DNA of 64,000 nt from assembly GCA_963752895.1 (NCBI GenBank), contig CAVWAE010000020.1, positions 60,878 to 124,877 on the forward strand. The letters run 5' to 3'. The position numbers and the translations under genes are program-made. Each line of letters begins with the position of its first letter. The stretch's first letter is position 1. This document shows positions 13,200 to 27,582 of the stretch, in pieces. The DNA comes from an uncultured Alphaproteobacteria bacterium (GTDB lineage Bacteria > Pseudomonadota > Alphaproteobacteria > Rhodobacterales > Rhodobacteraceae). Under the pieces are notes generated by a model. That model did not search any database, had not been told where the DNA came from, and saw only the letters and a list, made by a program, of their open reading frames with translations.

Positions 13200-14045
13200 T
13201 CAGCGGCCGCGTGCCCAACGTTCGCCGCGGGCAGGCAGCCTGCTTGCGAATTTGACCGCAGTATAGACCGACCATCCAACCGGATCGCTCAGAAACAGCT
13301 TGAGCGTGCCGCCGGACCCGAGCGGGGCCTTGTCCTCGTTCGCCTCGAGGTCGGGCCGGAAGGCCATGACTTCGCGCACACCCTGGTCCTGGCGGCGGCG
13401 CACGCGCACCAGCGGGAAGAACCCGTCCGACAGTGGCCATTCGTAGGTCTCGGGCACCTGTACCCGCTCTGCGGCAGCGAAAACGAGCCGGGCGAAGGCG
13501 TCGTCGCCGCGCACCCGTGGCCAGGTTTCCCATCGCGCCCGGCCCGCCCGGTTCATCGCGAACAGCCCGAAGCCGGGCGCGCGGGTTATGAAAAACGGCA
13601 ACCGGGTCCAGATCCTTGCATAGGCTCGGGTGATCGCCGAGGGCGACCGGCTGACGACCGGGGTGCCGCCGCCATAGAGCGGCGCCGCGCTGTCGAGTGC
13701 GCGCGCGAGCGCCCCGATCAATCCCGGTGAGACGGTCACGTCGGCGTCGAGATAGATCAGGACCCGGCCCGTGGCCTCCGCGTCGCCGAGATCGAGCGCC
13801 AGCGGTTTGCCGCCCTCGGCACTGTCGATCACGGTGAAGGTCCAGCCCGCGTCCCGGGCCTGCGCTTCGAAGCCTCGCGCGATACGGGCGGTGTCGTCGG
13901 TGCAGCCGTTGGCCACCACGATCGCCTGCGCTTCGAGCCCGTGGATGTCCGAGCCAAGCAGCGCCGCGAGCGTCTGCCCGAGATAGCCCGCCTCGTCATG
14001 CGCCGGGATGATGACGCTGAGCATGGGCGAAGCCTGTGGTGTCAT
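13200..14045 (-). CDS. Family 2 glycosyltransferase
   Basis: MLSVIIPAHDEAGYLGQTLAALL..AIVVANGCTDDTARIA..VLIYLDADVTVSPG (GT2 N-terminal motif and DxD). Its start overlaps the stop of 14042-15745 by 4 nt. Confidence 0.8.
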   Translation of the reverse strand: MTPQASPMLSVIIPAHDEAGYLGQTLAALLGSDIHGLEAQAIVVANGCTDDTARIARGFEAQARDAGWTFTVIDSAEGGKPLALDLGDAEATGRVLIYLDADVTVSPGLIGALARALDSAAPLYGGGTPVVSRSPSAITRAYARIWTRLPFFITRAPGFGLFAMNRAGRARWETWPRVRGDDAFARLVFAAAERVQVPETYEWPLSDGFFPLVRVRRRQDQGVREVMAFRPDLEANEDKAPLGSGGTLKLFLSDPVGWSVYTAVKFASRLPARGERWARGR

Positions 14046-15745
14046 TCAGGTGTGACCTCATCGCGTGCCGCAACCAGCGCATCCCACCGCGGGTTCTTGT
14101 CTCCCAGATGACGCAGATGTCCCCAGCTGCCGTATTTGCTGGGGGATTCGACGTCAACATAGGCGGCGAAAACCCCGCCATCCACGGCTTTCCAACCCGC
14201 GAGCACCTGCTCGTAGAGCGCGGCCATTTCCGCCGTGTAGTTGAGGTGGATCAGGAAGGCGTTGAGCTCTTCGTCGTCATGTTCTTCCCAGCTTGCCACC
14301 ACGTGCGTGCCGGCCTCATAGGCGACCATGTCCAGCCCCCATTCGGCCGCGACCTCGGCGTGGTAGGGAAACAGCGTGCCGACCAGGCTCGGCACATCGT
14401 GCACACCCTCCTGGGGCCCGTCGCCCCCGGCGAGGTGTTCTGCCGCGCGGGTCACCGCCGCGTCGAACCGGTGCGCCTCGACATAGGCCGAGCGTGCGGT
14501 GCCGGTGAGCCCGTCGGCGTCGGCCTGCGCGGCGGCCGCCGCCTTGCTGTCGGCGATCCAGGCGCGCACCGGGTCGGCCCAGTCGCCGCGCCCGAGATGG
14601 CTGCCGAAATAGCCGGTCACCGCGTAAGCGTCGAAATGTTTGCCCGGGGCCGTGCGCCCGCGCTCGTCGGCCACCCATTGGCCGGCGTTGAGGATCTGCT
14701 TTTCGAGCCCCAACCAGCCGGTCTGGGTGGCGATCACCCGCACCAGGCGGGCGTCGGCCTCGTCACCGAAGACCTCGGTCCAGATGTCGACGACCTCCGT
14801 GGCCCGGCCGGCGTAGAACTGGATCCAGCTCGGGTCGCGCTTCCACAGCGCCTGGGCCTGTTCGTCGGCCCAATGCGCCTGGTCGAAGCCCCAGTTCCAG
14901 ACCTCGTTGGAAAACTCGACCCAGGCGCGCAGCTCCGGATCGAGCTGGTCGCGCACCACTTCGGCGAAGTTGCGCACGAAGTCGTCGTCGGCCAGGTGCG
15001 GGATGTTGAACCAGGGCTCGGCGCCGGTCTCGTGCGCGAGCCGGATCATGACCTCCAGAGGCACGCCGTTCATCCGGTAGCTGAGGTCGCCGGGTTCGGG
15101 GCGGTCGGCCCAATGGGCGAGGAGGGAATCGTTGGTTTCCATCCAGTCCATGAACCGCAGCACCTCGAAGCCGTCGATCAGTGCCATCCAGTCGGGATTG
15201 AATATCTCGCCTGAGCTGTGCAGCGCCACCCGGTCCTGGCGCACGACGGTGAGGTCGCGCACGTAGTCGCCGGTGCCGCCGGGATCGGTGCTCAGGATGG
15301 TGATGTGAACTGCGCCGTTGCCCGGTGCGAAGTCGAACTCGGCGCTACCCGGGCCGTAGCTCACGTTCATCGCGCCCTGGTCGATCTCGACCTCGCCGGT
15401 GCCCTGCCAGCGCACCACGTAGCGCCCGGCGACACCACCCGCGTCATCCGGCAGGCCGGTCATCACCAACGTGCCGATCGAACTCACGCCGGGCGGGATC
15501 GTTGTCGGCCAGCCTGCGTCGTCGAACACGCCCGCGGCCAGCATGTCGTCCCAGTTCATGACCTCCCAATCGTCGGCGCCGTGGCCGATCCACGGCCGCG
15601 CGGTCTTCATCAGGTCGAGAAACGGCAATCCCGTGCTCCAGTCGACCGGAGCGGCGAGATTGATCCCGAGCCCATCGGCGTCGGCGCGGGCCGGGGCCGC
15701 CAGAAACACGAGAACGGCGAGCAGAGTTTTGAACAGACGGATCAT
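14042..15745 (-). CDS. Secreted glycoside-hydrolase-like protein (N-terminal beta-sandwich-like region plus clan GH-A-like TIM barrel)
   Basis: Start chosen at MIRLFKTLLAVLVFLAAPARADA (signal peptide). Candidate acid/base WVEFSNEVWNW and candidate nucleophile MVAYEAGTH. Confidence 0.5.
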   Translation of the reverse strand: MIRLFKTLLAVLVFLAAPARADADGLGINLAAPVDWSTGLPFLDLMKTARPWIGHGADDWEVMNWDDMLAAGVFDDAGWPTTIPPGVSSIGTLVMTGLPDDAGGVAGRYVVRWQGTGEVEIDQGAMNVSYGPGSAEFDFAPGNGAVHITILSTDPGGTGDYVRDLTVVRQDRVALHSSGEIFNPDWMALIDGFEVLRFMDWMETNDSLLAHWADRPEPGDLSYRMNGVPLEVMIRLAHETGAEPWFNIPHLADDDFVRNFAEVVRDQLDPELRAWVEFSNEVWNWGFDQAHWADEQAQALWKRDPSWIQFYAGRATEVVDIWTEVFGDEADARLVRVIATQTGWLGLEKQILNAGQWVADERGRTAPGKHFDAYAVTGYFGSHLGRGDWADPVRAWIADSKAAAAAQADADGLTGTARSAYVEAHRFDAAVTRAAEHLAGGDGPQEGVHDVPSLVGTLFPYHAEVAAEWGLDMVAYEAGTHVVASWEEHDDEELNAFLIHLNYTAEMAALYEQVLAGWKAVDGGVFAAYVDVESPSKYGSWGHLRHLGDKNPRWDALVAARDEVTPE

Positions 15746-15849
15746 GACGTACCCCCAATTTGGGAAGAGATGGCGTTGGATCGCCGTGGCGGCAAGAGCG
15801 CGCCGGCACACGGGGAATGAATATTCGGTCATCGGCACTTTTCCCGGAC

Positions 15850-16560
15850 CTAGCTCGGCGCCATGTCCGCCAGCAGCACGACGGCGGCATGGATCAACCC
15901 GCCCTGCACAGCGAACCGGCCGTCCAGCCGGTGGTTTACGCGAAACGGGCCGGTGTCTACCAAAAAGGTCGCTTCGAACTGGCCGGTATCGACATCCGGC
16001 GTCACCAGCACGGCGTCGAAATCGAGCAGCTTGTGGCTGACCGGGAACTGGCATTTGTAGAAAGCTTCCTTGGCGCAGAAGATCAGCTTGGCGAGACGTC
16101 CGCGCGCCGCTTCGGGTTGGGTCGCGAGCCAGGCGCGTTCTTCCAGCGTGCAGATGGTGGCGATGAGGTCGGGGTCGAGCGGGCTGTCGTGCTCGACATC
16201 GATGCCGAGGCTCTTGACCTGCGACGACCGTGCGACGGCGGCGACACAGGTGGTGTCGTTGTGGCTGAGGCTGCCGGTGAGGCCGCGCGGCCAGGACGGC
16301 GCGCGCGACCGGTTCGAGAGCACCGGCCGGGCGCTGAGACCGAGCTTTTCCATCGCCCGGTGCGCCGCGACGCGGCCCGCGACGTATTCGCGCCGGCGGC
16401 TGTCGACCGCGCGCGGCATCTCGGCAAGTTCGGTCGGAAACGCGCCCGGATATTCGGCCCGGGGATCAGTGACCGCCACCGCGACCGGGCGTCCCGGCGC
16501 GACGTCCACGAGACCCTGGAAGGTCTCTTCCGTGGTGTGGAAGGCGGTCTCGAGCATCAC
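15850..16560 (-). CDS. 4'-phosphopantetheinyl transferase (EntD/Sfp type)
   Basis: ..EYVAGRVAAHRAMEKLG..WPRGLTGSLSHNDTTCVAAVA..SLGIDVE..IFCAKEAFYKC. The start GTGATG overlaps the NRPS stop codon. Confidence 0.85.
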   Translation of the reverse strand: MMLETAFHTTEETFQGLVDVAPGRPVAVAVTDPRAEYPGAFPTELAEMPRAVDSRRREYVAGRVAAHRAMEKLGLSARPVLSNRSRAPSWPRGLTGSLSHNDTTCVAAVARSSQVKSLGIDVEHDSPLDPDLIATICTLEERAWLATQPEAARGRLAKLIFCAKEAFYKCQFPVSHKLLDFDAVLVTPDVDTGQFEATFLVDTGPFRVNHRLDGRFAVQGGLIHAAVVLLADMAPS

Positions 16561-19500
16561 GCCGCGACCCGCCCGCGCTTCGCCCGCATCTCGCGGCGGC
16601 GCGCCATGATCGCCGCCCGGTCGAACTCGGGCAGCACGATCGGGGCGTCGGACGCCTGGTCGGGACCGGCGAGGCCGTACTTGGCCGCGAGGTGCGCAGC
16701 AAGATCGCGCAGGACCGGGAACCGGAAGACCTCGGTGATCGCCGTGCCCCCGAGCCCTTCCAGACCCTTGATTTCCTTGTGGGCCTTGACCGCGAGCAGC
16801 GAATGGCCGCCGAGCGCGAAGAAGCTGTCGTCGGCGCGGATGTCGTCGATGCCGAGCGCCTCGGCCCAGATTGTCGAGATCTGCGCCTCAAGCCCGACCC
16901 CGGGGGGCGGCCCCTCGCCGGACCGCTCGATGCGCACCTCGGCCTCGGGCTCCGGCAGCGCCTTGCGGTCGACCTTGCGGTTGGGGGTGAGCGGCAGGGC
17001 GTCGAGCACCATGAACTGCGCCGGCACCATGACCTCGGGCAGGTTCGCCACCAGATCGGCGCGGATCGCGGCGGTATCGACGGCGCCGGCCTCCTCGATA
17101 TAGGCGACAAGGCGGGTCTCCGCCCCCTCCCCTTTCGGCACCACGACCGCCTGGCGCACACCGTCCGCCCGGTTGATCCGGGCCTCGATCTCGCCCAGCT
17201 CCAGCCGCTGGCCGCGGATCTTGACCTGGTGGTCGGTGCGGCCGAGGAAGTCGAGCACCCCGTCGGCGCGCCAGCGCACCAGATCGCCGGTGCCGTACAT
17301 CCGCGCCTCTTCGAAGGTCGCGACGCCGGTCTCTTCCGCAAAAGGATCGCGCCGGAAGCGGTCGGCGTTGAGCTCGTCGCGCTGCCAGTAGCCGCGCGTG
17401 ACCCCGAGGCCGCCGATCCAGAGCTCGCCCGGCAGCCCGACCGGCACCGGCTGCATATGCGCGTCGAGCACATAGACCGTCTGGTTGGCCATCGGCTTGC
17501 CCACCGGCACGACGCCGGTTTCGTTGCCCTCGACCGGGTGCGCGGTCGACCAGATCGTGGTCTCGGTCGGCCCGTACATGTCGATGATCTGGGCATCCGA
17601 GATCGAGCGGATATCGGCGGTGAGCGAGGCGGTCACCGCTTCGCCGCCGAGCAGGATCTGCTTGAGCCCGCCGAGGGCTGCGCGCGCGCCGTCGTCGGCG
17701 AGGATCATTCGCCCCATCGAGGGTGTGCATTGCAGCACTGTCGCCTTGTGGCGGGTGAGCTGGGCGGAGAGCGAATAGTCTTCGCCGCCGCTGTCCCCAT
17801 CCGACAGGGTCACGCGGGATTCCTCGCTGACGATCACCACCTTGAAGCCGCGGGTGATGGTGTAGAACAGCTCCAGCACCGAGATGTCGAACCCGAGGCT
17901 CGTGACCGCGAGCCAGACGCCGTCATGACCCTGATCTGGCCCCTGGTCGAGATAGGCGTCCATCCCGGTGAAGAAGTTGGACACGTTGCGGTGCTCGACC
18001 TGCACGCCCTTCGGGATGCCGGTGGAGCCCGAGGTGTAGATCACGTAAGCCAGCGCGTCGCCGGGGATGTCCAGGTCCGGGCGGCTGGTGTCGGCGTCGC
18101 CTGACACCATCACCGGCACCGCGTCGGATTTCGGCAGGCTCGGGGCCAGGCCGAGGTTGGTCACCACGAAGGTGGCCTGGCTGTCGGTGACGTAATGCAC
18201 CAGCCGGTCGGCCGGATAGGCGGGGTCGAGCGGCACGTAGGCCGCACCGACCTTGTGGATCGCGACCGCCGCGATCATCAGCTCGAAGGAGCGGGCGAGA
18301 TAGATGCCGATGCGGTCGCCGGGCACAGCACCTTCGGCGATCAGCCGGTGCGCCAGCGCGTTGGCGCGCGCGTCGAGCTCGGCGTAGCTCATCGAACGGT
18401 CGTTGAACACCAGCGCGGTGGCATCCGGCGTGCGGTCGACCTGGGCTTCGAACGCCCTGTGGATCGGCCCGAGGTAGCTTTCGGCCTGGGTCTGGTTCCA
18501 GTCGACGACGGTCAACGCCCGCTCGCGCGCGGGCATCACCAGGAGCTCGCGCACCGGCCGGTCCGGCGTGGCCTTGAGGTTGTCGAGGAACAGAACGAGG
18601 CGGTCGGCAAGCAGCACGAGCGCCTCTTCTTCGATCAGCCGTGCGTCGTGCCAGAGCGTGATCCGGCCCATGCCCAGCGCGAGCGTGAGCGCGGTGCCGT
18701 CGATCGGGCCGTTGCGGCTGAGGCCGATCGAGGGCATCTCGACCGCCGCGAGCCCCGGATCGCGGGCGATGAGGTCGGCGGCGAAACTGCCCGTCCGGGC
18801 GGCGGCAAGGTCATCTGCGAGCGCGCCGGCAAGCGCGGCGACCGGCGCCGCGGCCGGGTCTTCGAGCGTGAGCGCGAGCGGTACCCAGGGGGTCACGTAG
18901 CCCGGCGTCGCCTGTGCCGCGGCCTCGATCTCGGCGCTGGCGAAGGCGAGACCCGCCCCCCAGTCGCCGGTGTTGTGCAAGGCCCAGGCCGCGAGCGCCG
19001 CGAGGGCATCGTCTTCGTTGAGCCCCTTCGGCGCGGTGAAGTGCCGCTCGCCCCAGGAGGCGAGCCCGCGGGGGCGCTGTGCGAGCGCGAGATGGGCGGG
19101 ACGAAAGCCCGCGAGGCGCGCGCGCCAATGGGGCTCACCCGGCGCGAGCGCGGCCATGGCGGCACGGAGCGCCTCCGATTGGTCCGGCTCGGGCGAGGCC
19201 AGCACCGCCCCTTCGAGGGCCGCGGTGTAGAGTTCTACCGGATGCCCGGCCATGTCGGCGAAGCCGCTGAGACGCACCGCGCCGTCGCTCGTGGCCACGG
19301 TCATCGAGTCCGGGCTCACACTCAGCACCGTGCCCGGCTCGGCGGGGGCGACGGTTTCGACCGTCTTGGCCTTGCCCACCAGCAGGAGCCGGCCGCCGGC
19401 CTTGATTTTCGGCATCGCCAGCGGATTCCAGTAGCCGCCGAAATCCAGCGCCCGGACGACCCGGGCGACCTCGACCGCCGCGCGGTTGAAATCGAGCCGG

Positions 19501-20093
19501 CCGGCCGCCTCGGGGCGCGCGGTCGGCTTGAAATAGCGCCGCCGGGCGGGGTCCTGCGGACGCCGGTCGAGTTTGCCGGCTTCGATCTGGTCGAGCACCG
19601 CGTCGAAACCTTCGAGCCCGGCGGCGTAGCATTTCGCGTTCAGGGTGAAGGCGGTCTCATCCGCGGCGATGTCGAAGTCCTTGAGGCAAAGGATGTCGCC
19701 TTCGTCCTTGGTGCCCTCGACAAGGTGCCAGGTGATCCCGTGTTTGGGCGCGCCGGCCATGAGCGCCCAGGCCGGCGTGTTGGGCCCGGCGCAGTCCGGC
19801 AGCGGCCCGTCCTGGAAGTTGATCGTGCCCTCGCGCGGGAGCGCCCTGAGCGCCTCCGAGATCACCCCCGGGTTGGCGATCGAGAGCAGCCAGTCGACCG
19901 GGATGTCGTCGTCGGCGATGATGAGATCCTCGAAGCGCGCCGCCTGGGCGAACCCCGCGTCGCGCGCCCAGGCGCGAACCTTTTCATTGGCGCTCACGAC
20001 CCCGGTGATCGTGTGACCGCGCGCCACGAGCGCGTCGCCACACCCGATGACGAGTGTCTCTTCTCCGATGAGCAGGCAGGACAACTGGGTCAT
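16557..20093 (-). CDS. NRPS-like loading module: formyltransferase-like domain, degenerate condensation-like region, adenylation domain (glycine code), PCP
   Basis: Start at MTQLSCLLIGEE (ATG at 20093). Fmt-like GTINFQDGPLPDCAGPNTPAWALM. A-domain motifs LSYAELDARANALA, YVIYTSGSTGIPKGV, FDISVLE, YGPTETTIW, GELWIGGLGVTRGY, YGTGDLVRW, GRTDHQVKIRG. PCP motif FFALGGHSLLAV. Confidence 0.85.
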   Translation of the reverse strand: MTQLSCLLIGEETLVIGCGDALVARGHTITGVVSANEKVRAWARDAGFAQAARFEDLIIADDDIPVDWLLSIANPGVISEALRALPREGTINFQDGPLPDCAGPNTPAWALMAGAPKHGITWHLVEGTKDEGDILCLKDFDIAADETAFTLNAKCYAAGLEGFDAVLDQIEAGKLDRRPQDPARRRYFKPTARPEAAGRLDFNRAAVEVARVVRALDFGGYWNPLAMPKIKAGGRLLLVGKAKTVETVAPAEPGTVLSVSPDSMTVATSDGAVRLSGFADMAGHPVELYTAALEGAVLASPEPDQSEALRAAMAALAPGEPHWRARLAGFRPAHLALAQRPRGLASWGERHFTAPKGLNEDDALAALAAWALHNTGDWGAGLAFASAEIEAAAQATPGYVTPWVPLALTLEDPAAAPVAALAGALADDLAAARTGSFAADLIARDPGLAAVEMPSIGLSRNGPIDGTALTLALGMGRITLWHDARLIEEEALVLLADRLVLFLDNLKATPDRPVRELLVMPARERALTVVDWNQTQAESYLGPIHRAFEAQVDRTPDATALVFNDRSMSYAELDARANALAHRLIAEGAVPGDRIGIYLARSFELMIAAVAIHKVGAAYVPLDPAYPADRLVHYVTDSQATFVVTNLGLAPSLPKSDAVPVMVSGDADTSRPDLDIPGDALAYVIYTSGSTGIPKGVQVEHRNVSNFFTGMDAYLDQGPDQGHDGVWLAVTSLGFDISVLELFYTITRGFKVVIVSEESRVTLSDGDSGGEDYSLSAQLTRHKATVLQCTPSMGRMILADDGARAALGGLKQILLGGEAVTASLTADIRSISDAQIIDMYGPTETTIWSTAHPVEGNETGVVPVGKPMANQTVYVLDAHMQPVPVGLPGELWIGGLGVTRGYWQRDELNADRFRRDPFAEETGVATFEEARMYGTGDLVRWRADGVLDFLGRTDHQVKIRGQRLELGEIEARINRADGVRQAVVVPKGEGAETRLVAYIEEAGAVDTAAIRADLVANLPEVMVPAQFMVLDALPLTPNRKVDRKALPEPEAEVRIERSGEGPPPGVGLEAQISTIWAEALGIDDIRADDSFFALGGHSLLAVKAHKEIKGLEGLGGTAITEVFRFPVLRDLAAHLAAKYGLAGPDQASDAPIVLPEFDRAAIMARRREMRAKRGRVAA

Positions 20094-20113
20094 GTCGGAA
20101 CCTCTGAACAGGG

Positions 20114-21115
20114 TCAGGACGCGGTGCCGGACGGCGCCGCGCGGTGGGTGAACAGGGAGCGAAAGTGGTGGCGCAGGAGATCGCGCCCGAAGCGGCTGGT
20201 ATTGCGGTAGCGCACGGATTTCGGGTTCACGAGACGGCGCAGCATCCACACGCCCTCGCCCGCCAGCAGCGCCAGGGTGACCGCGATGGTATAGGGCAGC
20301 CCGTAGTTCTTGCGGAAATAGTAATAGCGCGAGTCGAACCAGTAGTTCGGCACCCGTTCCCAGCGGTCCATGCCGGTGGCGACCCCGCCGATATGCACGA
20401 CGCGGCTGTCGGGCAGCGACCAGATCTCCCACCCCGCCCGCTTGCAGCGCAGGCACAGGTCGGTTTCCTCGAAATAGAGAAAATAGGTCTCGTCGAAGAG
20501 CCCGACCTCGTCGAGCATCGCCTGGCGGAACATCACCGAGGAACCCGACACCCAGTCGACTTCGACCGTGTTCAGAGCGACCGGCGACGGGTCGCGACCG
20601 CGTTCGAGGAGTTTCGAGAACACCGCGGTGCGGGCCGCGTCCTCGAACTCGCGCACCATGTTGGGAAAGCGGAAAGCGCCGTAGGCGGGCGCGCCGTCGG
20701 GCGTCAGGATCAGGCTGCCGGCGACACCGACTTTCGGGCGGGCCTCGAAGAAATCGACCAGCGCCCGGATCGCGCCGGGTTCCGGCACCGCGTCGGGGTT
20801 GAGCAGATAGATGTAGTCGGGTTTCTCGCCCGAGGTGAGACCCGCCCGAATTGCGAAATTATTGCCCGAACCGAAGCCGCCGTTGTGGCCGGCGCTGTAG
20901 ACATGGATCCGGCCGTCCTCGGCCCAGCCCCTTTCGGCAGAGGCCGCCAGCAGGTGCTCGAGGGAGCCATCCTGAGAATCGTTGTCGACGATGGCGATCT
21001 CGCCGCCGAGATCCGCCATTTCGCGCAACGCCCCCTCCGCGGCCTTCACCGCCAGTTCGGGCGTGCGGTAGTTGAGGATGACCGTCAGCACCTTGGGTTC
21101 AGACAACAGGTTCAC
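20114..21115 (-). CDS. Family 2 glycosyltransferase
   Basis: KVLTVILNYRTPELAVKAAEGAL..IAIVDNDSQDGS..GHNGGFGSGNNFAIRAGL..YIYLLNPDAV. The GTG start is immediately preceded by TAAGGAG, which includes the PKS stop. Confidence 0.85.
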   Translation of the reverse strand: MNLLSEPKVLTVILNYRTPELAVKAAEGALREMADLGGEIAIVDNDSQDGSLEHLLAASAERGWAEDGRIHVYSAGHNGGFGSGNNFAIRAGLTSGEKPDYIYLLNPDAVPEPGAIRALVDFFEARPKVGVAGSLILTPDGAPAYGAFRFPNMVREFEDAARTAVFSKLLERGRDPSPVALNTVEVDWVSGSSVMFRQAMLDEVGLFDETYFLYFEETDLCLRCKRAGWEIWSLPDSRVVHIGGVATGMDRWERVPNYWFDSRYYYFRKNYGLPYTIAVTLALLAGEGVWMLRRLVNPKSVRYRNTSRFGRDLLRHHFRSLFTHRAAPSGTAS

Positions 21116-21118
21116 TCC

Positions 21119-24100
21119 TTACTCCGCCGCTTCCCGGGCGTCCCACTGGACGATCTCCCCGGGAGAGGCGAGCGCCACGTCGATCCGCGTGCGCAGGTAG
21201 GTGCCAAGAACACCGACATTGGGCACCAGGACCATCGATCCGTGGTCGCCCGGCACCTCGACGACTTCCAGCTTCGGGATGTGTTCACCCCAGTCGTTGT
21301 CGTCGCTCACGTAGCGTTTTTCCGAGGTGATCCACCGGCCGCGGCTCACCTTGTAGTGCTTGTCGAGCGCCGGACGCATCAGGACGACGTTCATGTCGTA
21401 TTGCGGCGGCTGATAGGCCGCGATCGCATCGCGGAAGGCCATCTCGATCCGGTGGTTGTGGAACGTGCCTTCCGGCTCGTCGTTGCCCTTGCGGCGTTTC
21501 TCGAACTCCCAGGCGATCCGGTTGCGCGCCCATTCGAACACGTAAGCCCCACCCTTCTTGCGGAATTCTGCGAGCTTTATCAGTGCCTTGTCGATCTTTT
21601 TCAGGACCGGATCCTGGACCTTGTAGGTGTCGAGCAGGACCACGAGCGCCGCCTCTTCGCCTTCGGCCTCGAGTTGGCGCGCGATCTCCAGCGCGGTGAT
21701 CCCGCCGCCCGAGAACCCGCCGACCACGTAAGGCCCCTCGGGCTGGATCTGGCGCATCTCGGCAAGGCAGGACGCGGCGGCCTCCTCAAAGCTGTGCAAG
21801 GTCTCGTCGTCGCCGAGCAGTCCCTTCGCCTGGAGCCCGTAGACGGGGCGGTCCTTGCCCAGGATCTGCGCGATGTGGCGCAGGTTGAGCACGTTGCCGA
21901 ACATGCCGGCGACCAGGAAGACCGGTGTCGCATGGGTCTCGCGCGAGCGGTTGAGCGGCACGATATGGGTGAAGGCCGGACGGGTCTCGCCAGCCGCGGA
22001 GCCGTCGCCGCCGGTTGCGGTCTGGCGGTCGATGCGCGCCGCCCATTCGCGGATCGTCGGCGCCTCGGCCAGTACGGCCAGGCCGAAATCCGTCGCCCAG
22101 GTCTTGTTCACGTTGGCGCAGAGCCGGACCGCGATCAGGGAATGGCCGCCAAGGTCGAAGAAATCGTCGTCGATCCCGACCTTTGAAATGCCGAGCAGCT
22201 TCGACCATTCCTCGGCCAGCGCCGTCTCGACCTCGGTCTCGGGCGCGGCATAGGCGGTGTCGAGATCCGGGCGGTCGAATGTCTGCCCCGGCGCGTGCGC
22301 CACAGGCTCGGTCCGGTCGGCCTCGGCGATGAGGCCCGCGAGATCCAGCGAGCTGACAAGGACCTGCGGCAAGCCGAGCGCGAGGCTGCGCTCCAGGGCC
22401 GCGAGCCCCTCGCCCGGGCGGATGCCCTGGCCGACGTTCCAGGCCAGTTGCGCCTCGGCGGCGGTGCGCTTGTGCGGCGCATCGGCAGGGTCGGGAAAGG
22501 TCACATCGGTTGCCGTGAGCGGCGCCGGCGCAAGCCCTGTCTCCGGGTCCACCCGCTTCATCCGCAACCCGCCGATCTCGACCAGCACGGTGCCGTCGAG
22601 ATCGCACAACGTCACCTCGAACAGGGCGCTGTCGAGCGGGCCGTCGGCCGGCGCGAGCCGCACCCAGCAGGCCAGTTCGGCCCCGAGCGGGCGGTGCACC
22701 CGGATCGTGGCGCAGCTTTCGGGCAACCAGAGGCTGCCGTCGACATGGTTCGGCGCCAGCCCGACCGCCCAGGTCATGGCGAGGTCGAGCAGGCCGGGGT
22801 GAAGGATCATCCCCGGCGCCAGTGTGTCCATCGCCGCGGCCGGCAGTTTGAGCCGGGCCAGCCCTTCGGTCGTGCCGAGGGCTGTCTCCCGAAGCCCGTG
22901 CCACGCCGGCCCGTAGATGAGCCGGGCCTCCTGCGGCGCGCGCAGGTGATCGTCCTCGGCGGCGGAACTGGGCGTGCCGTTCTGACAGCGCACGGCGACG
23001 GCGCCGAGATCGACCGGCGGCGGCGCTGTCGCATCGAGCGCCGTCACCTTCGCCCGCGCATGGGTGAGCCGGGCGGCGCGCCCATCGACGCTGACATCGC
23101 TGTGCAATTCGAACTGCACAGCCGCAGCGTTCTGGCGCATCCGGACCGCGGTTTGCGGGGCCCGGGCCCCGGACCCGGCGCCGGCCAGGAACGGATGGTC
23201 GAGATGCAGGCCCTCGATCTCGAGCGGAACCGCACCGCCATCGGCCACGAAGCCTTCGGCGGCCAGTTCGATCATCGCCGCGGCGGGCATCAGCCCGGTG
23301 CCTGCGCCAATACCTGATCCCGTGCCTGAGCCGGTGCCGGACCTGACCTGGTGCTGGTCGAGCACCCAGGCGCGCCCGGCCTCCCAGGTGGTGCGTAGCA
23401 GCCGCACCCCGTCGCGGTCGAACCCGGCGGTGCCGATGAGCGGCGCGTCGACCGGCACCCCCGGCGCCTCCGACGGGTCCACCGGATCGAGCGCACGCGC
23501 GACCATGCCGATGTCCGACCAGACGCCCCAGTTGATCGAGACCACCCGGGTTTCGCCGCCCTGCCGGCTCTTGGCATAGGCGTTGAGATATTCGTTGGCG
23601 GCCACGAAATCGACTTCGCCGGCGTTGTGTGTCGCCGTCGTGGTCGAGGAGAACAGCACCATGAGGTCGGTGGAACCGTCCGGGAACAGCTCTTCGAGCA
23701 CCCGCAGTCCGTCGATCTTGGGCGCGAACACCAGTTCCATCGCCTGCGGGTCGCGGTCGAGGAGCGGGCCGTCGTCGAGCACGCCGGCCGCATGGAGCAC
23801 CCCGTCGATCCGGCCGTGGCGCTCGGTCACCGAGGTGACAACGGCGCGCATGGCTTCGAGGTTGGTCACGTTGGCGGCGGCGATCTCGATCTCGCCGTCG
23901 AGCATTTCGAGCGCCTGGACGCCGCGAATGGCGGCGGCGATGCGGTCGCCGGGCGCGCTGCGCGCCAGTACCCCGTCCCAGCTTTCGCGCGGCGGCATCG
24001 CGCGCCGCCCGACCAGGATCACCCTGGCCGCATGGCGCTCGAGCAGGGAGCGTGCCACGTCGAGCCCGAGGTCGCCGAGCCCACCGGTGATGAGATAGGT

Positions 24101-27100
24101 GCCGCCGTCGCGGAAGGCCGGCGTTTGCGGCGCCTCCAGCTTCACCTTGGTGTAGCCCTGCCGGTACCGGCGCGCGTCGCGGTAGGCGGCAACCTCGTTC
24201 GCCGGGTCTGCCAGCAGGTCTTCGAGAAGCCGGAGCGCGAGGGCGTCATGATCGGGTTTGGTCCGCCTGCCGAACAGGCCCTTGCGGGCCGGCGCCGGGC
24301 CGACCGGTTCGAGATCGAGGGTCGCGCAGGTGACCCCCGGCAATTCGCGCGACATCACCCCGGCGGGGCCGGCGATCGTCGCCTTTTCGGGCGAGGCGAT
24401 CGGCCCGCCGTTCACCGACGCCGAATCCCGCGTGACGGCCAGGATGTGGACCGGCCCGGAGAGATCGGCGCGGCCCAGCGCCTGGGCGAGATAGGTCAGG
24501 CTGTAGAAGCCGTATTCCATGTTGTCATGGAACGGGTCCGAGCCGAGCCGGTGGGAGTCCGCCCCGAACAATCCCCAGAAATGGGCAATGCGGGTGGGGG
24601 TGAGCCCCTTTTCGGCAAGGTCCGAAAACAGCGCCTCGTAGCCCTCGCGCCCCTGTTCCGACAACAGCGAATAGCGCCGCTCGCCGACTTCGGCGAAGGT
24701 GTCGCCCGAGACCACCCGGACCACCGTGTGACCGGCCGCCTCGAGGCGGTCGAAAGCGGCCCTGGCGATCCCCTCGCTGTCTTCGAAGACCAGCCAGGTT
24801 TCTTTCGGGGCGCGGTCGAGCCCGGTCGCCACATCGTATTCGCAGGCGGCATAGGCCGGGTACCAGGCCGGACGCCAGCCCCAGTCGGCGATGTCTTCCT
24901 TGCGCAGGAGATCGTGCGACACGGCCGACGCCGTCGCGGCAGCGGTGCGCCCCGGTTCGATGAGATAGCGCGCACGCTGGAAGCTGTAGCCGGGCAGCGG
25001 GACACGGTGGCGCTTGGCCTCGGCCCAGAACTGGCCCCAGTCGGCCTCGACCCCAAGGGCCCAGAGCCGGGCCAGCGCGCCGATGAAATGCACATCGTCG
25101 GCAACGGGCGCCGCGGGATCGCGCAGCGTGTCGATGAACCGGTCCGCGGTCACGCCTTCGGTGTCGAGGACACGGGCCGCGAAGCCCGGATCGCGTGCGA
25201 GCGCGAGGAACACCCTGTCGGGACTTGCCGCGAGCGCGGCGATCGCCGCGGCGAGATGGCTTTCATCCCCACCGGCGGAGACCCAGGTCTCCGGGCTGGT
25301 CGCCTGTTGCGGCGTGATCGGCGCGCCGGTGCGAGCCGAGACCAGCGGCATCCCGGGTGCGTGCAGTTCAAGCCCGCTGGCAAAACCGCGCACTTCGGCG
25401 CGCGCGGCTTTGCGCGCGTCGGCCTGTTCTGTCGCGGTCAGGCGCCCGCGCAGATGGGCGAGCTTGACGGCCTCTTCGAACGTCAAGACGCCCGCGACCA
25501 CCGCGGCGGCGGTTTCGCCCGCCGAGGCGCCCACCAGCGAGACCGGCGCCACACCCCAGGACAGGGCGAGCTGCGCCATCGCGACGCCGAGGATCACGGT
25601 GAGCGGTTCGGCAATGGCGGGGGTTGCGAGCCGGTCGGACGCCGCGTCGTTGCGCTCTTCGGCGAAGCAGAGCGCGCGCAGATCTTCGCCTGCCTGTTCA
25701 CCCAGCTGGTCGCCGAACGCATCGAACCCGCGCGCCATCCAGTCGTTGAAGACCGGTTCGGTCTCGTAGAGATCGCGCGCGGTGCCCGGCGCGAGCACCG
25801 GCGCGCCCGGGAACAGGAACACGACGCCCGGGGCGGACCCGAGGCGGTCATGGGTGAAAACCCGGCGTTCGTCGCCGGTGTCAAGCAGGCGCGCGGCCTC
25901 GGCGTGGTCGCGCGCGACCAGCACCCGGCGCTTGTCGAACCGCTTGCGCCCCTGCATCAGCGTGAAGGCCACGTCGGCCAGCGGCTGTTCGGGATGGGCG
26001 CGCAGATGGGCCGCGAGGCGTGCCGACATCGCGTCGAGCGCTTGGCCGTTGCGCGCCGAGAGCACGATCGGCTGGAACGGGAACACGCCCGGGTCCGAGG
26101 CCGCACGTTCGGGCGCCTGTTCGAGCACCGCATGCGCGTTGGTGCCGCCCACGCCAAGCGTGTTGACCGCGGCCCGGCGGGGGGATGCGCCCGCGGGCCA
26201 GGCGGCGCGCTTGTCGTTCACGTAGAACGGGCTGGCCGCGAAATCGATCATCGGGTTCGGCGCCTCGTAATTGAGGCTCGGCGGGATCTCGGCATGGCTG
26301 AGCGCCAGCGCCGTCTTCACCAACCCGGTGACGGCGGCGGCGGTGTCGAGGTTGCCGACGTTGGTCTGGACCGAGCCGATGCCGCAGAACTGCGCCCCTT
26401 CGGCGCCGCGCGCCCGGTAGGCCTCGGTGAGCCCGGCCACCTCGAACGGATCGCCCAGCAGCGTGCCGGTGCCGTGGCATTCGACATAGGCGATGGTCTC
26501 GGGCGCGACCCCGGCGGCATCGAGCGCCTGGCCCACCACCGCGGCCTGCCCGGCCTCGGAGGGCGCGAAGAACCCGGCCTTGTCGGCGCCGTCGTTGTTG
26601 AGCCCGGTGCCCTTGATGACCGCCCAGATATGGTCGCCGTCGGCCAGCGCGTCCTCGAGCCGGCGCAGCACCACCGCGCCCGCGCCCGAACCCATGACCG
26701 AGCCGCCCGCCTTGTGGTCGAAGGCGCGGCAATGGCCGTCGGGCGAGAGAATGTCGTTCTCGCGGTAGAGATAGCCGCGTCCATGCGGCATCTCGACCGA
26801 GACGCCGCCGGCCAGCGCCATGTCGCACTCGCCGTCCTTGAGCGCCTTGGCTGCCTGGTGGACGCCGACCAGCGCGGTGGAGCACGCCGTCTGGATGTTG
26901 ATCGACGGCCCCTTCAGGTCGAGCAGATGGCTCACCCGGGTCGACAGGAAATCCTTGTCGTTGCCGGTGTTGCGCAGCTGGAACGGCCCGAGATCGTCGA
27001 CCAGATCGGGGTTCGAGAACAGGTTCAGATAGAGATAGCTGCCCGCCCCGCAGCCGGCGAACACGCCGACCCGTCCGGCGAATTCTTCCGCCGTGTGACC

Positions 27101-27436
27101 CGCGTTCTCCAGCGCCTCCCAGGCGGTTTCGAGAAACTTGCGGTGTTGCGGATCGAGGATCGCGGCCTCTTTCGGGCTGAAGCCGAAAAACTCGGCGTCG
27201 AACATGTCGTAGCCGTCGAGCAGTCCGGCGGCGGGCACGTAGTTTTCGCGCCGCATCATCTCGGGGCTTTCGCCGGCCGCTTTCAGCTGAGGCGGGTCGA
27301 GCCGGGAAATGCTCTCGACCCCGTTGGCGAGGTTGTCCCAGAAGTCATCGAGCGTCGCCGCACCGGGCAGGTTGACTGCCATGCCCACAATCGCGATGTC
27401 GCCTGACGCATCGCCGGATAATTTACGTTGGGTCAA
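21119..27436 (-). CDS. Type I polyketide synthase, domain order KS-AT-KR-DH-ACP-TE
   Basis: KS (DIAIVGMAVNLPG, IQTACSTALV, ECHGTGTLLGDP), AT (FLFPGAP.., GASAGE), KR (GTYLITGGLGDLG), DH (LDQHQVRSG..LMPAAAMIE, HPGLLDLA), ACP (FFDLGGHSLIAV), TE (GFSGGG). The ORF is open to the ATG at 27526; a TTG at 27436 behind AGGA is the more plausible start. Confidence 0.88.
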   Translation of the reverse strand: MTQRKLSGDASGDIAIVGMAVNLPGAATLDDFWDNLANGVESISRLDPPQLKAAGESPEMMRRENYVPAAGLLDGYDMFDAEFFGFSPKEAAILDPQHRKFLETAWEALENAGHTAEEFAGRVGVFAGCGAGSYLYLNLFSNPDLVDDLGPFQLRNTGNDKDFLSTRVSHLLDLKGPSINIQTACSTALVGVHQAAKALKDGECDMALAGGVSVEMPHGRGYLYRENDILSPDGHCRAFDHKAGGSVMGSGAGAVVLRRLEDALADGDHIWAVIKGTGLNNDGADKAGFFAPSEAGQAAVVGQALDAAGVAPETIAYVECHGTGTLLGDPFEVAGLTEAYRARGAEGAQFCGIGSVQTNVGNLDTAAAVTGLVKTALALSHAEIPPSLNYEAPNPMIDFAASPFYVNDKRAAWPAGASPRRAAVNTLGVGGTNAHAVLEQAPERAASDPGVFPFQPIVLSARNGQALDAMSARLAAHLRAHPEQPLADVAFTLMQGRKRFDKRRVLVARDHAEAARLLDTGDERRVFTHDRLGSAPGVVFLFPGAPVLAPGTARDLYETEPVFNDWMARGFDAFGDQLGEQAGEDLRALCFAEERNDAASDRLATPAIAEPLTVILGVAMAQLALSWGVAPVSLVGASAGETAAAVVAGVLTFEEAVKLAHLRGRLTATEQADARKAARAEVRGFASGLELHAPGMPLVSARTGAPITPQQATSPETWVSAGGDESHLAAAIAALAASPDRVFLALARDPGFAARVLDTEGVTADRFIDTLRDPAAPVADDVHFIGALARLWALGVEADWGQFWAEAKRHRVPLPGYSFQRARYLIEPGRTAAATASAVSHDLLRKEDIADWGWRPAWYPAYAACEYDVATGLDRAPKETWLVFEDSEGIARAAFDRLEAAGHTVVRVVSGDTFAEVGERRYSLLSEQGREGYEALFSDLAEKGLTPTRIAHFWGLFGADSHRLGSDPFHDNMEYGFYSLTYLAQALGRADLSGPVHILAVTRDSASVNGGPIASPEKATIAGPAGVMSRELPGVTCATLDLEPVGPAPARKGLFGRRTKPDHDALALRLLEDLLADPANEVAAYRDARRYRQGYTKVKLEAPQTPAFRDGGTYLITGGLGDLGLDVARSLLERHAARVILVGRRAMPPRESWDGVLARSAPGDRIAAAIRGVQALEMLDGEIEIAAANVTNLEAMRAVVTSVTERHGRIDGVLHAAGVLDDGPLLDRDPQAMELVFAPKIDGLRVLEELFPDGSTDLMVLFSSTTTATHNAGEVDFVAANEYLNAYAKSRQGGETRVVSINWGVWSDIGMVARALDPVDPSEAPGVPVDAPLIGTAGFDRDGVRLLRTTWEAGRAWVLDQHQVRSGTGSGTGSGIGAGTGLMPAAAMIELAAEGFVADGGAVPLEIEGLHLDHPFLAGAGSGARAPQTAVRMRQNAAAVQFELHSDVSVDGRAARLTHARAKVTALDATAPPPVDLGAVAVRCQNGTPSSAAEDDHLRAPQEARLIYGPAWHGLRETALGTTEGLARLKLPAAAMDTLAPGMILHPGLLDLAMTWAVGLAPNHVDGSLWLPESCATIRVHRPLGAELACWVRLAPADGPLDSALFEVTLCDLDGTVLVEIGGLRMKRVDPETGLAPAPLTATDVTFPDPADAPHKRTAAEAQLAWNVGQGIRPGEGLAALERSLALGLPQVLVSSLDLAGLIAEADRTEPVAHAPGQTFDRPDLDTAYAAPETEVETALAEEWSKLLGISKVGIDDDFFDLGGHSLIAVRLCANVNKTWATDFGLAVLAEAPTIREWAARIDRQTATGGDGSAAGETRPAFTHIVPLNRSRETHATPVFLVAGMFGNVLNLRHIAQILGKDRPVYGLQAKGLLGDDETLHSFEEAAASCLAEMRQIQPEGPYVVGGFSGGGITALEIARQLEAEGEEAALVVLLDTYKVQDPVLKKIDKALIKLAEFRKKGGAYVFEWARNRIAWEFEKRRKGNDEPEGTFHNHRIEMAFRDAIAAYQPPQYDMNVVLMRPALDKHYKVSRGRWITSEKRYVSDDNDWGEHIPKLEVVEVPGDHGSMVLVPNVGVLGTYLRTRIDVALASPGEIVQWDAREAAE

Positions 27437-27582
27437 TGTCGAATTCCTGTTCCCCCAATACAGGCCAACTGCATAACAAATACCTGCGTGGAACAGTAGC
27501 TGGCCTCCGGCAAGATACCGCCGCAAGTCGGGTAAGTATTTGAAAAATTAGTGAAAACAGATTATTCACGAAATAGGATACA

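Follow-up and report, generated by a model that had tools for sequence, protein, structure and literature searches.

What does a nonribosomal peptide synthetase (NRPS) load, and in which chemical form, once the formyltransferase at its front has lost its catalytic histidine? The question is raised by a window of 64,000 nucleotides (the whole stretch of DNA analysed here; contig CAVWAE010000020.1 of assembly GCA_963752895.1, positions 60,878 to 124,877), which comes from an uncultured member of the Rhodobacteraceae and carries, on its minus strand, an NRPS gene with formyltransferase (F), condensation (C)-like, adenylation (A) and peptidyl carrier protein (PCP) regions. From comparisons of this protein with its relatives, we lean towards the view that it is a simplified, derived glycine loader, which would have shed formylation and hydroxylation, keep its F domain mainly as a scaffold and pass the glycyl group on unmodified. 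The original prediction for this gene is supported in part; it had overlooked which gene cluster the NRPS belongs to, the norm of its family (a catalytic His in F and a monooxygenase within A) and the loss of both in the clade that includes the window.

The open reading frame of the NRPS spans 16557-20456 on the minus strand, its biological start being the ATG at 20093. The product opens MTQLSC/MTQLSCLLIGEE..., an N-terminus that agrees with all homologs, and Pfam locates AMP-binding at residues 548-903, AMP-binding_C at 968-1040 and PP-binding at 1071-1135. Its features are as follows.

16557..20093 (-): NRPS gene, 1178 aa, in five parts, F(N-lobe)-F(C-lobe)-half C-A(Gly)-PCP
19524..20093 (-): catalytic lobe of the formyltransferase, residues 1-190 (PF00551 match, Fmt alignment, AlphaFold2 (AF2) model)
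19818..19820 (-): Asn92, triad residue kept (Fmt alignment, homolog alignment)
19812..19814 (-): Gln94, codon CAG, at the place of the catalytic His (Fmt His110; alignment and codon check)
19704..19706 (-): Asp130, triad residue kept (Fmt alignment, homolog alignment)
19239..19523 (-): C-terminal OB-fold lobe of the formyltransferase, residues 191-285 (PF02911 match; the fold match spans both lobes)
18459..19238 (-): C-terminal lobe of a C domain with the C-A linker, residues 286-545, lacking the N-lobe and HHxxxDG
16914..18458 (-): A domain, residues 546-1060, code DILQLGMIWK (motifs A3-A8 and A10 intact)
17757..17828 (-): short A4-A5 linker, SEESRVTLSDGDSGGEDYSLSAQL (canonical homologs carry a luciferase-like monooxygenase of about 355 aa at that spot)
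16674..16913 (-): PCP domain, GGHS(1098)L, Ser codon at 16800-16802
16560..16673 (-): basic C-terminal tail, conserved, a possible docking element (invariant R1166 and R1170)

The formyltransferase and condensation-like regions

Both Pfam domains of an Fmt-type enzyme, which the original prediction had named for an HMM check, exceed their gathering scores: Formyl_trans_N (PF00551) at residues 77-162 (32.7 bits, cut-off 26.1) and Formyl_trans_C (PF02911) at residues 197-277 (28.4 bits, cut-off 21.1). When solved structures are searched with phmmer, E. coli Fmt comes top (E 1.8e-17), followed by other Fmt entries and ArnA, while the LgrA F domain is reached only at about 1e-3. In an AF2 model (residues 1-300, pLDDT 88.6), both lobes superpose on Fmt and on the ArnA formyltransferase, with TM scores of 0.77-0.82. 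As modelled, the F domain is a complete two-lobe enzyme fold of the Fmt/ArnA type, unlike the short LgrA-type F domain. The triad residues Asn and Asp also align with those of Fmt and ArnA, as does an SLLP-like loop. Differences are the fusion to an NRPS, the Gln at the His110 equivalent and an overall identity of about 20-25%.

The replacement of His by Gln, as originally predicted, is confirmed. A gap-free HMMER alignment to E. coli Fmt (1fmt) pairs residues 64-167 with Fmt 80-183, and N92, Q94 and D130 fall on Fmt positions 108, 110 and 146, those of the catalytic triad; a profile alignment placing a His at the catalytic position was sought, and none does so. The position is occupied by His in 116 of 120 homologs, in 28 of 29 genus representatives from the same family, and in all 147 diverse representatives of 50% clusters, among which Asn or Asp vary occasionally and His never does. 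Gln is found only in the window protein and in three close relatives from other assemblies. Codon 94 is CAG in the locus L113 (88% identical), as in the window, and CAC in L114 (76% identical). As the Gln is common to relatives from separate assemblies (three independent assemblies share it), a sequencing or assembly error is ruled out.

The change at residue 94 does not stand alone. Six of the 52 F N-lobe positions that are at least 95% conserved in canonical members are altered in the window (L75P, L83R, A90T, H94Q, L104P and G128T), all within residues 75-128, around the triad. Residues 74-79 match the AYGLILP segment in the Fmt alignment, which we take to be part of the folate pocket in PurN and Fmt. 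Conserved positions are all unchanged in the F C-lobe (13/13) and in the half C domain (15/15), and 11 of 158 are changed, mostly conservatively, in the A domain. Ratios of nonsynonymous to synonymous substitution (dN/dS; Nei-Gojobori method, NG86, window against L113) amount to 0.19 for the F N-lobe, 0.24 for the F C-lobe, 0.27 for the half C domain, 0.13 for A and 0.16 for PCP, against 0.3-0.7 in degenerate lineages. The F domain of the window is thus not decaying. Together, these patterns suggest that one active site was remodelled on the stem of the clade described below, and that constraint was then renewed. Formyl transfer, which had been predicted to be lost or altered, has most likely been lost or strongly weakened in the window lineage, as indicated by comparison with relatives; we found nothing that supports the use of another acyl donor.

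The region between the F and A domains had been taken for some 400 aa resembling the C-terminal half of a C domain without an HHxxxDG motif. Its nature is borne out, and its extent is smaller: the C remnant covers about 260 aa (residues 286-545), and about 95 aa of the supposed region (residues 191-285) make up the C-lobe, an OB fold, of the formyltransferase. Residues 286-545 open with the W-x-x-x-L ... LP motif of the C-domain C-terminal lobe and close with a typical ER..L...WN.T C-A linker. A profile built from 17 sequences (residues 281-560) aligns to the second halves of solved C domains from EntF (212-475), LgrA (964-1241), SrfA-C (259-482) and RzmA (190-330). In the AF2 model of the middle region (pLDDT 84.5), all of the top 50 Foldseek matches are NRPS C domains. 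The NRPS protein has no Pfam Condensation match (PF00668) even at E<=1, and no HH dipeptide occurs anywhere in its 1178 aa; HHxxxDG was not found, the alignment to C domains beginning past the region of this motif. The middle region is therefore half a C domain, unable to condense.

At least 1245 cluster representatives show the combination of F and half C at E<=1e-30, and, among the matches listed, it is found also in cyanobacteria, Desulfobacterium, Agrobacterium, Photorhabdus and others. Related loci sought with the full-length alignment were for the most part unrelated NRPSs matched through generic A-domain patterns; among the matches listed, about 12 loci that have the N-terminal domains were usable. 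Multimodular NRPSs of Photorhabdus namnaonensis and P. tasmaniensis (L019 and L020) start with a formyltransferase, half a C domain and an A domain, and keep the His. The arrangement is thus bound neither to a polyketide synthase (PKS) partner nor to glycan loci.

Glycine code, monooxygenase insert and the derived clade

Specificity residues of the A domain were read from motif anchors, FDxS (235/236/239), xxTPS (278), xxGGE (299/301), xYGPTExxIW (322/330/331) and QVKIRG (517). They are D736, I737, L740, Q788, L814, G816, M839, I847, W848 and K958, or DILQLGMIWK, so that the glycine signature proposed originally holds on re-reading. Core motifs are intact (YTSGSTGIPKG, FDIS, YGPTE, GELWIGGLGVTRGY, YGTGD, GRTDHQVKIRGQRLELGEIE and PNRKVDR), as is GGHSL in the carrier. 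The best-scoring solved A domain is that of LgrA module 2 (299 bits), the glycine module, followed by module 1 (247 bits). By the same extraction, 62 of 120 proteins have exactly this code (9 being unscorable), and nearly all other codes deviate only at 299 or 330. In a 2025 survey, DILQLGMIWK was the exact code common to all Gly-activating A domains with monooxygenase (MOX) features (PMC12283262). We infer that the A domain activates glycine and charges the PCP, of which the co-encoded phosphopantetheinyl transferase (PPTase) would make the holo form.

Nearly every homolog has some 1520 aa, with a luciferase-like monooxygenase (LLM) of the MupA/Atu3671 type inserted in the A domain, after A4 and before A5. 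The window protein lacks this insert, as do six relatives, and in the window a linker of 24 residues takes its place; Pfam finds no match to PF00296 (luciferase-like monooxygenase) in the window NRPS, and the insert is missing in the alignment. A maximum-likelihood tree unites the seven LLM-less proteins in a single clade (SH-aLRT 100, stem 0.41). Its sister is an LLM-bearing protein, and the Roseobacter sequences among which the clade is nested carry the LLM as well. The domain was thus lost once. This clade without the monooxygenase and with His changed to Gln is a new element, the canonical orphan Roseobacter system being already known. Its members differ as follows.

P0006: F domain with N-H-D kept; A and PCP intact
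P0002-5: F domain with H changed to Q; A and PCP intact
P0007: F domain without Asn and Asp; A domain without A4, A5, the A7 Asp and Lys517
P0009: F domain without Asn and without the Asp region; nearly every A motif (A3-A8) and the PCP serine lost

No MupA/Atu3671-type LLM was found elsewhere in the assembled genome. The sole match of the search, a TIGR03571-family LLM on another contig, was rejected as a trans-acting replacement. Such absences are weak evidence for the genome, since the assembly (3.67 Mb, 30 contigs) is rated 56.8% complete by marker genes.

Degenerate pairs can retain open frames. In locus L116 (716-11410, contig PDWI01003831.1 of GCA_002754915.1), the NRPS lacks A3-A8 and the PCP serine and the PKS lacks its acyl carrier protein (ACP) domain, and still no stop interrupts either gene (1173 and 2047 aa), their order being unchanged. 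A further copy of the N-terminal half, the second in one Rhodobacteraceae genome (G178, locus L112), has N-F-S at the triad positions.

The partner synthase and competing explanations

The NRPS is flanked by three genes on the same strand, annotated with Pfam and NCBIfam.

21119..27526 (-): single-module PKS, KS-AT-KR-DH-ACP-TE (ketosynthase, acyltransferase, ketoreductase, dehydratase, ACP, thioesterase), 2135 aa, with non-canonical KS, AT, KR and DH motifs
20114..21115 (-): family-2 glycosyltransferase (GT2), between PKS and NRPS (Pfam/NCBIfam)
15850..16560 (-): Sfp-type PPTase (its start and the stop of the NRPS gene overlap)

The order PKS, GT2, NRPS, PPTase is identical in L113-L118, and the NRPS is orthologous to Rhodobacteraceae F-halfC-A-PCP proteins (full-length homologs, among which it is nested in the tree). 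The window NRPS belongs to the conserved PKS-GT-NRPS-PPTase cluster of roseobacters, a four-gene cluster whose product is unknown (PMC4337385, PMC5014874); it was described by Martens et al. in 2007, according to the passages citing that work in PMC4337385 and PMC5014874, and as of 2023 was unmatched to any known cluster (PMC10584327). Our literature search found no paper naming a product of the Roseobacter PKS/NRPS cluster. The window shares with this cluster its four genes and their order, an orthologous NRPS and flanking polysaccharide genes, and differs from it by the missing monooxygenase insert, the Gln in place of His, and altered KS, AT, KR and DH motifs in the PKS. State of the PKS domains:

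KS: Cys and HGTGT kept; SVKTNIGH changed to SVQTNVGN (Lys and second His lost)
AT: GHSMG changed to GASAG; about 70 aa deleted, including the AAHS histidine
KR: Tyr (VDYVAAN) changed to Phe
DH: Gly/Thr/Ser repeat interrupting the HxxxGxxxxP motif in the window and L113
ACP: Ser kept
TE: GFSGG and His kept

The KS Lys and second His, the AT His segment and the KR Tyr being lost, ordinary chain extension is doubtful. A Cys-His-Asn triad is functional in KAS III enzymes, and inactivity of the KS is for that reason not deducible from sequence. Values of dN/dS for PKS, GT and PPTase lie between 0.08 and 0.29 (KS 0.076, KR 0.12). As read from motifs, the pattern across NRPS and PKS is one of altered tailoring and extension catalysis, with loading, carrying and release kept. 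It had been proposed that the module hands glycine to the PKS. The architecture agrees, as a KS comes first in the PKS, without any loading module, but the KS, AT and KR losses make extension from this glycine doubtful.

Known systems offer analogies. The LgrA F-A-PCP module and the F-A(Gly)-PCP modules of CongA, OzmO and RizA also have a formyltransferase fold N-terminal to A-PCP, and CongA, OzmO and RizA resemble the window module further in an A domain of predicted glycine specificity that delivers to a PKS (PMC4504003). The window differs from LgrA in its two-lobe F domain (E 2e-17 to Fmt vs 1e-3 to LgrA F, LgrA being outside the top 50 fold matches), and from the LgrA, CongA, OzmO and RizA modules in the half C domain between F and A and in its N92-Q94-D130 triad. 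No CongE/OzmP-like protein turned up in the Pfam scans of neighbouring genes, among which no search was aimed at such proteins. MtaG and MelG (PMC11411415) and SolF (PMC10204066) have the identical code DILQLGMIWK (PMC12283262), and canonical homologs share their A4-A5 insert; in the window, by contrast, the insert is cleanly deleted, and the module initiates instead of terminating, without a full C domain or a TE.

On these analogies, an Asn-His-Asp formyltransferase in canonical relatives would N-formylate PCP-tethered glycine, as in LgrA and CongA/OzmO (PMC4504003), and the flavin monooxygenase in the A domain would alpha-hydroxylate the tethered glycine, as in MtaG, MelG and SolF (PMC11411415, PMC10204066). 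In the window lineage, the monooxygenase would have been deleted and the formyltransferase active site remodelled, ending in His94 to Gln. Purifying selection would keep the F and half C regions mainly as a platform that seats the A domain and replaces a full C domain. Unmodified glycyl-S-PCP would then pass its glycyl group to the KS cysteine and on to the ACP of the partner synthase, after which the TE would release it, probably to a constituent of the exopolysaccharide that the neighbouring genes produce. The strictest form of this scheme, a non-extending glycyl relay from A to PCP, KS Cys, ACP and TE that results in plain glycyl decoration of exopolysaccharide, is in our view rather unlikely. 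Under such a relay, all sites for tailoring and extension would be rewritten in the clade (the F His, the MOX, the KS Lys and His, the AT, the KR Tyr and the DH), in proteins that are under strong purifying selection.

Several points weigh against a loader that passes on unmodified glycine. The expected effect of a His-to-Gln change on activity rests on mutagenesis of PurN and FDH. The hand-off to the KS and the release onto a glycan are deduced, not directly observed, and an oxygenase or formyltransferase that acts in trans may have escaped detection, the assembly being rated 56.8% complete. Finally, Asn92, Asp130 and the DGPLP motif are kept in an F domain that is itself clearly constrained, so that residual or altered catalysis is conceivable. 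These retained residues, along with the intact two-lobe fold, the catalytic-lobe dN/dS of 0.19 and the full triad of the LLM-less relative P0006, would also fit a Gln94 formyltransferase that is still active, N-formylglycine being loaded as in the CongA/OzmO loaders and hydroxylation alone being lost. We consider this unlikely, as His is invariant (147/147) even where Asn or Asp vary, five more positions that are invariant in canonical members are changed near the active site, and sister lineages lack both Asn and Asp.

Two further explanations compete with that of the simplified glycine loader. The NRPS/PKS pair may be a decaying relic, with frames that stay open through the rarity of stops at 68-70% GC or through downstream translational coupling. 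Related lineages are indeed clearly dead (P0007 without A4, A5, the A7 Asp and Lys517; P0009 without A3-A8 and the PCP serine, and its PKS without ACP), with dN/dS up to 0.3-0.7 there, and the AT deletion of the window takes the catalytic-His segment. However, dN/dS in the window lineage is 0.08-0.29 in every domain, including 0.076 for KS and 0.12 for KR, and all A, PCP, ACP, TE and PPTase motifs are intact, so that decay appears improbable, more so than an active formyltransferase. Alternatively, the Gln-bearing F domain could have switched its chemistry, to another acyl donor or to a sugar or amine acceptor, which would agree with a remodelled active site under purifying selection and with a fold near the sugar N-formyltransferases ArnA, FdtF, QdtF and WlaRD in a polysaccharide locus. 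We give this very little credence: nothing speaks for it positively, six changes in 52 positions are few and bring no new conserved motif that we could see, and neighbouring domains in the same clade show loss, not gain.

About one in three of the Rhodobacteraceae genera sampled has the Roseobacter PKS/NRPS cluster (the N-terminal half being found in 85 of 251 genomes, one per genus, in the same family), which has been known since 2007, still without a product or function. The LLM-less clade is a natural dissection of this system: the oxygenase was shed and the formyltransferase His and the PKS extension sites were changed, while loading, carrier, release and PPTase functions were kept under selection, which indicates the steps that are dispensable. 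If the glycyl relay is true, the clade is a natural "minimal version" that marks the indispensable part of an orphan pathway. In any event, the canonical and stripped versions form a comparison pair for seeking the product in the exopolysaccharide fraction, and a formyltransferase-fold domain may persist as a pseudo-enzyme scaffold where the N-lobe of a C domain would be.

The polysaccharide locus and minor observations

Genes around the cluster make up a polysaccharide locus (WecG, Wzy-like, GT2, GT4, Wzz-like, BY-kinase-like and Bac_transf genes, together with rml genes). The same locus surrounds the cluster in the window, four close relatives, Ruegeria pomeroyi and a "Muriiphilus" assembly. 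In L118, which holds the nearest LLM-bearing relative, it runs on (22764-24635) into genes for the exosortase EpsH and for a VPEID-CTERM protein, which ties the cluster to exosortase-type surface polysaccharide systems.

Directly downstream of the PPTase, the window encodes a 568-aa protein (14045-15748, minus strand) with no Pfam or NCBIfam match. L114, L116 and L118 have a protein of about 567 aa in this position, likewise without a Pfam match, and in the R. pomeroyi locus (L117) two proteins, 315 and 845 aa long and equally Pfam-less, come after the PPTase.

Lastly, the C-terminal tail of the NRPS (..MARRREMRAKRGRVAA) is basic and conserved, R1166 and R1170 being invariant among 30 aligned sequences, and this tail may be a docking element toward the PKS.

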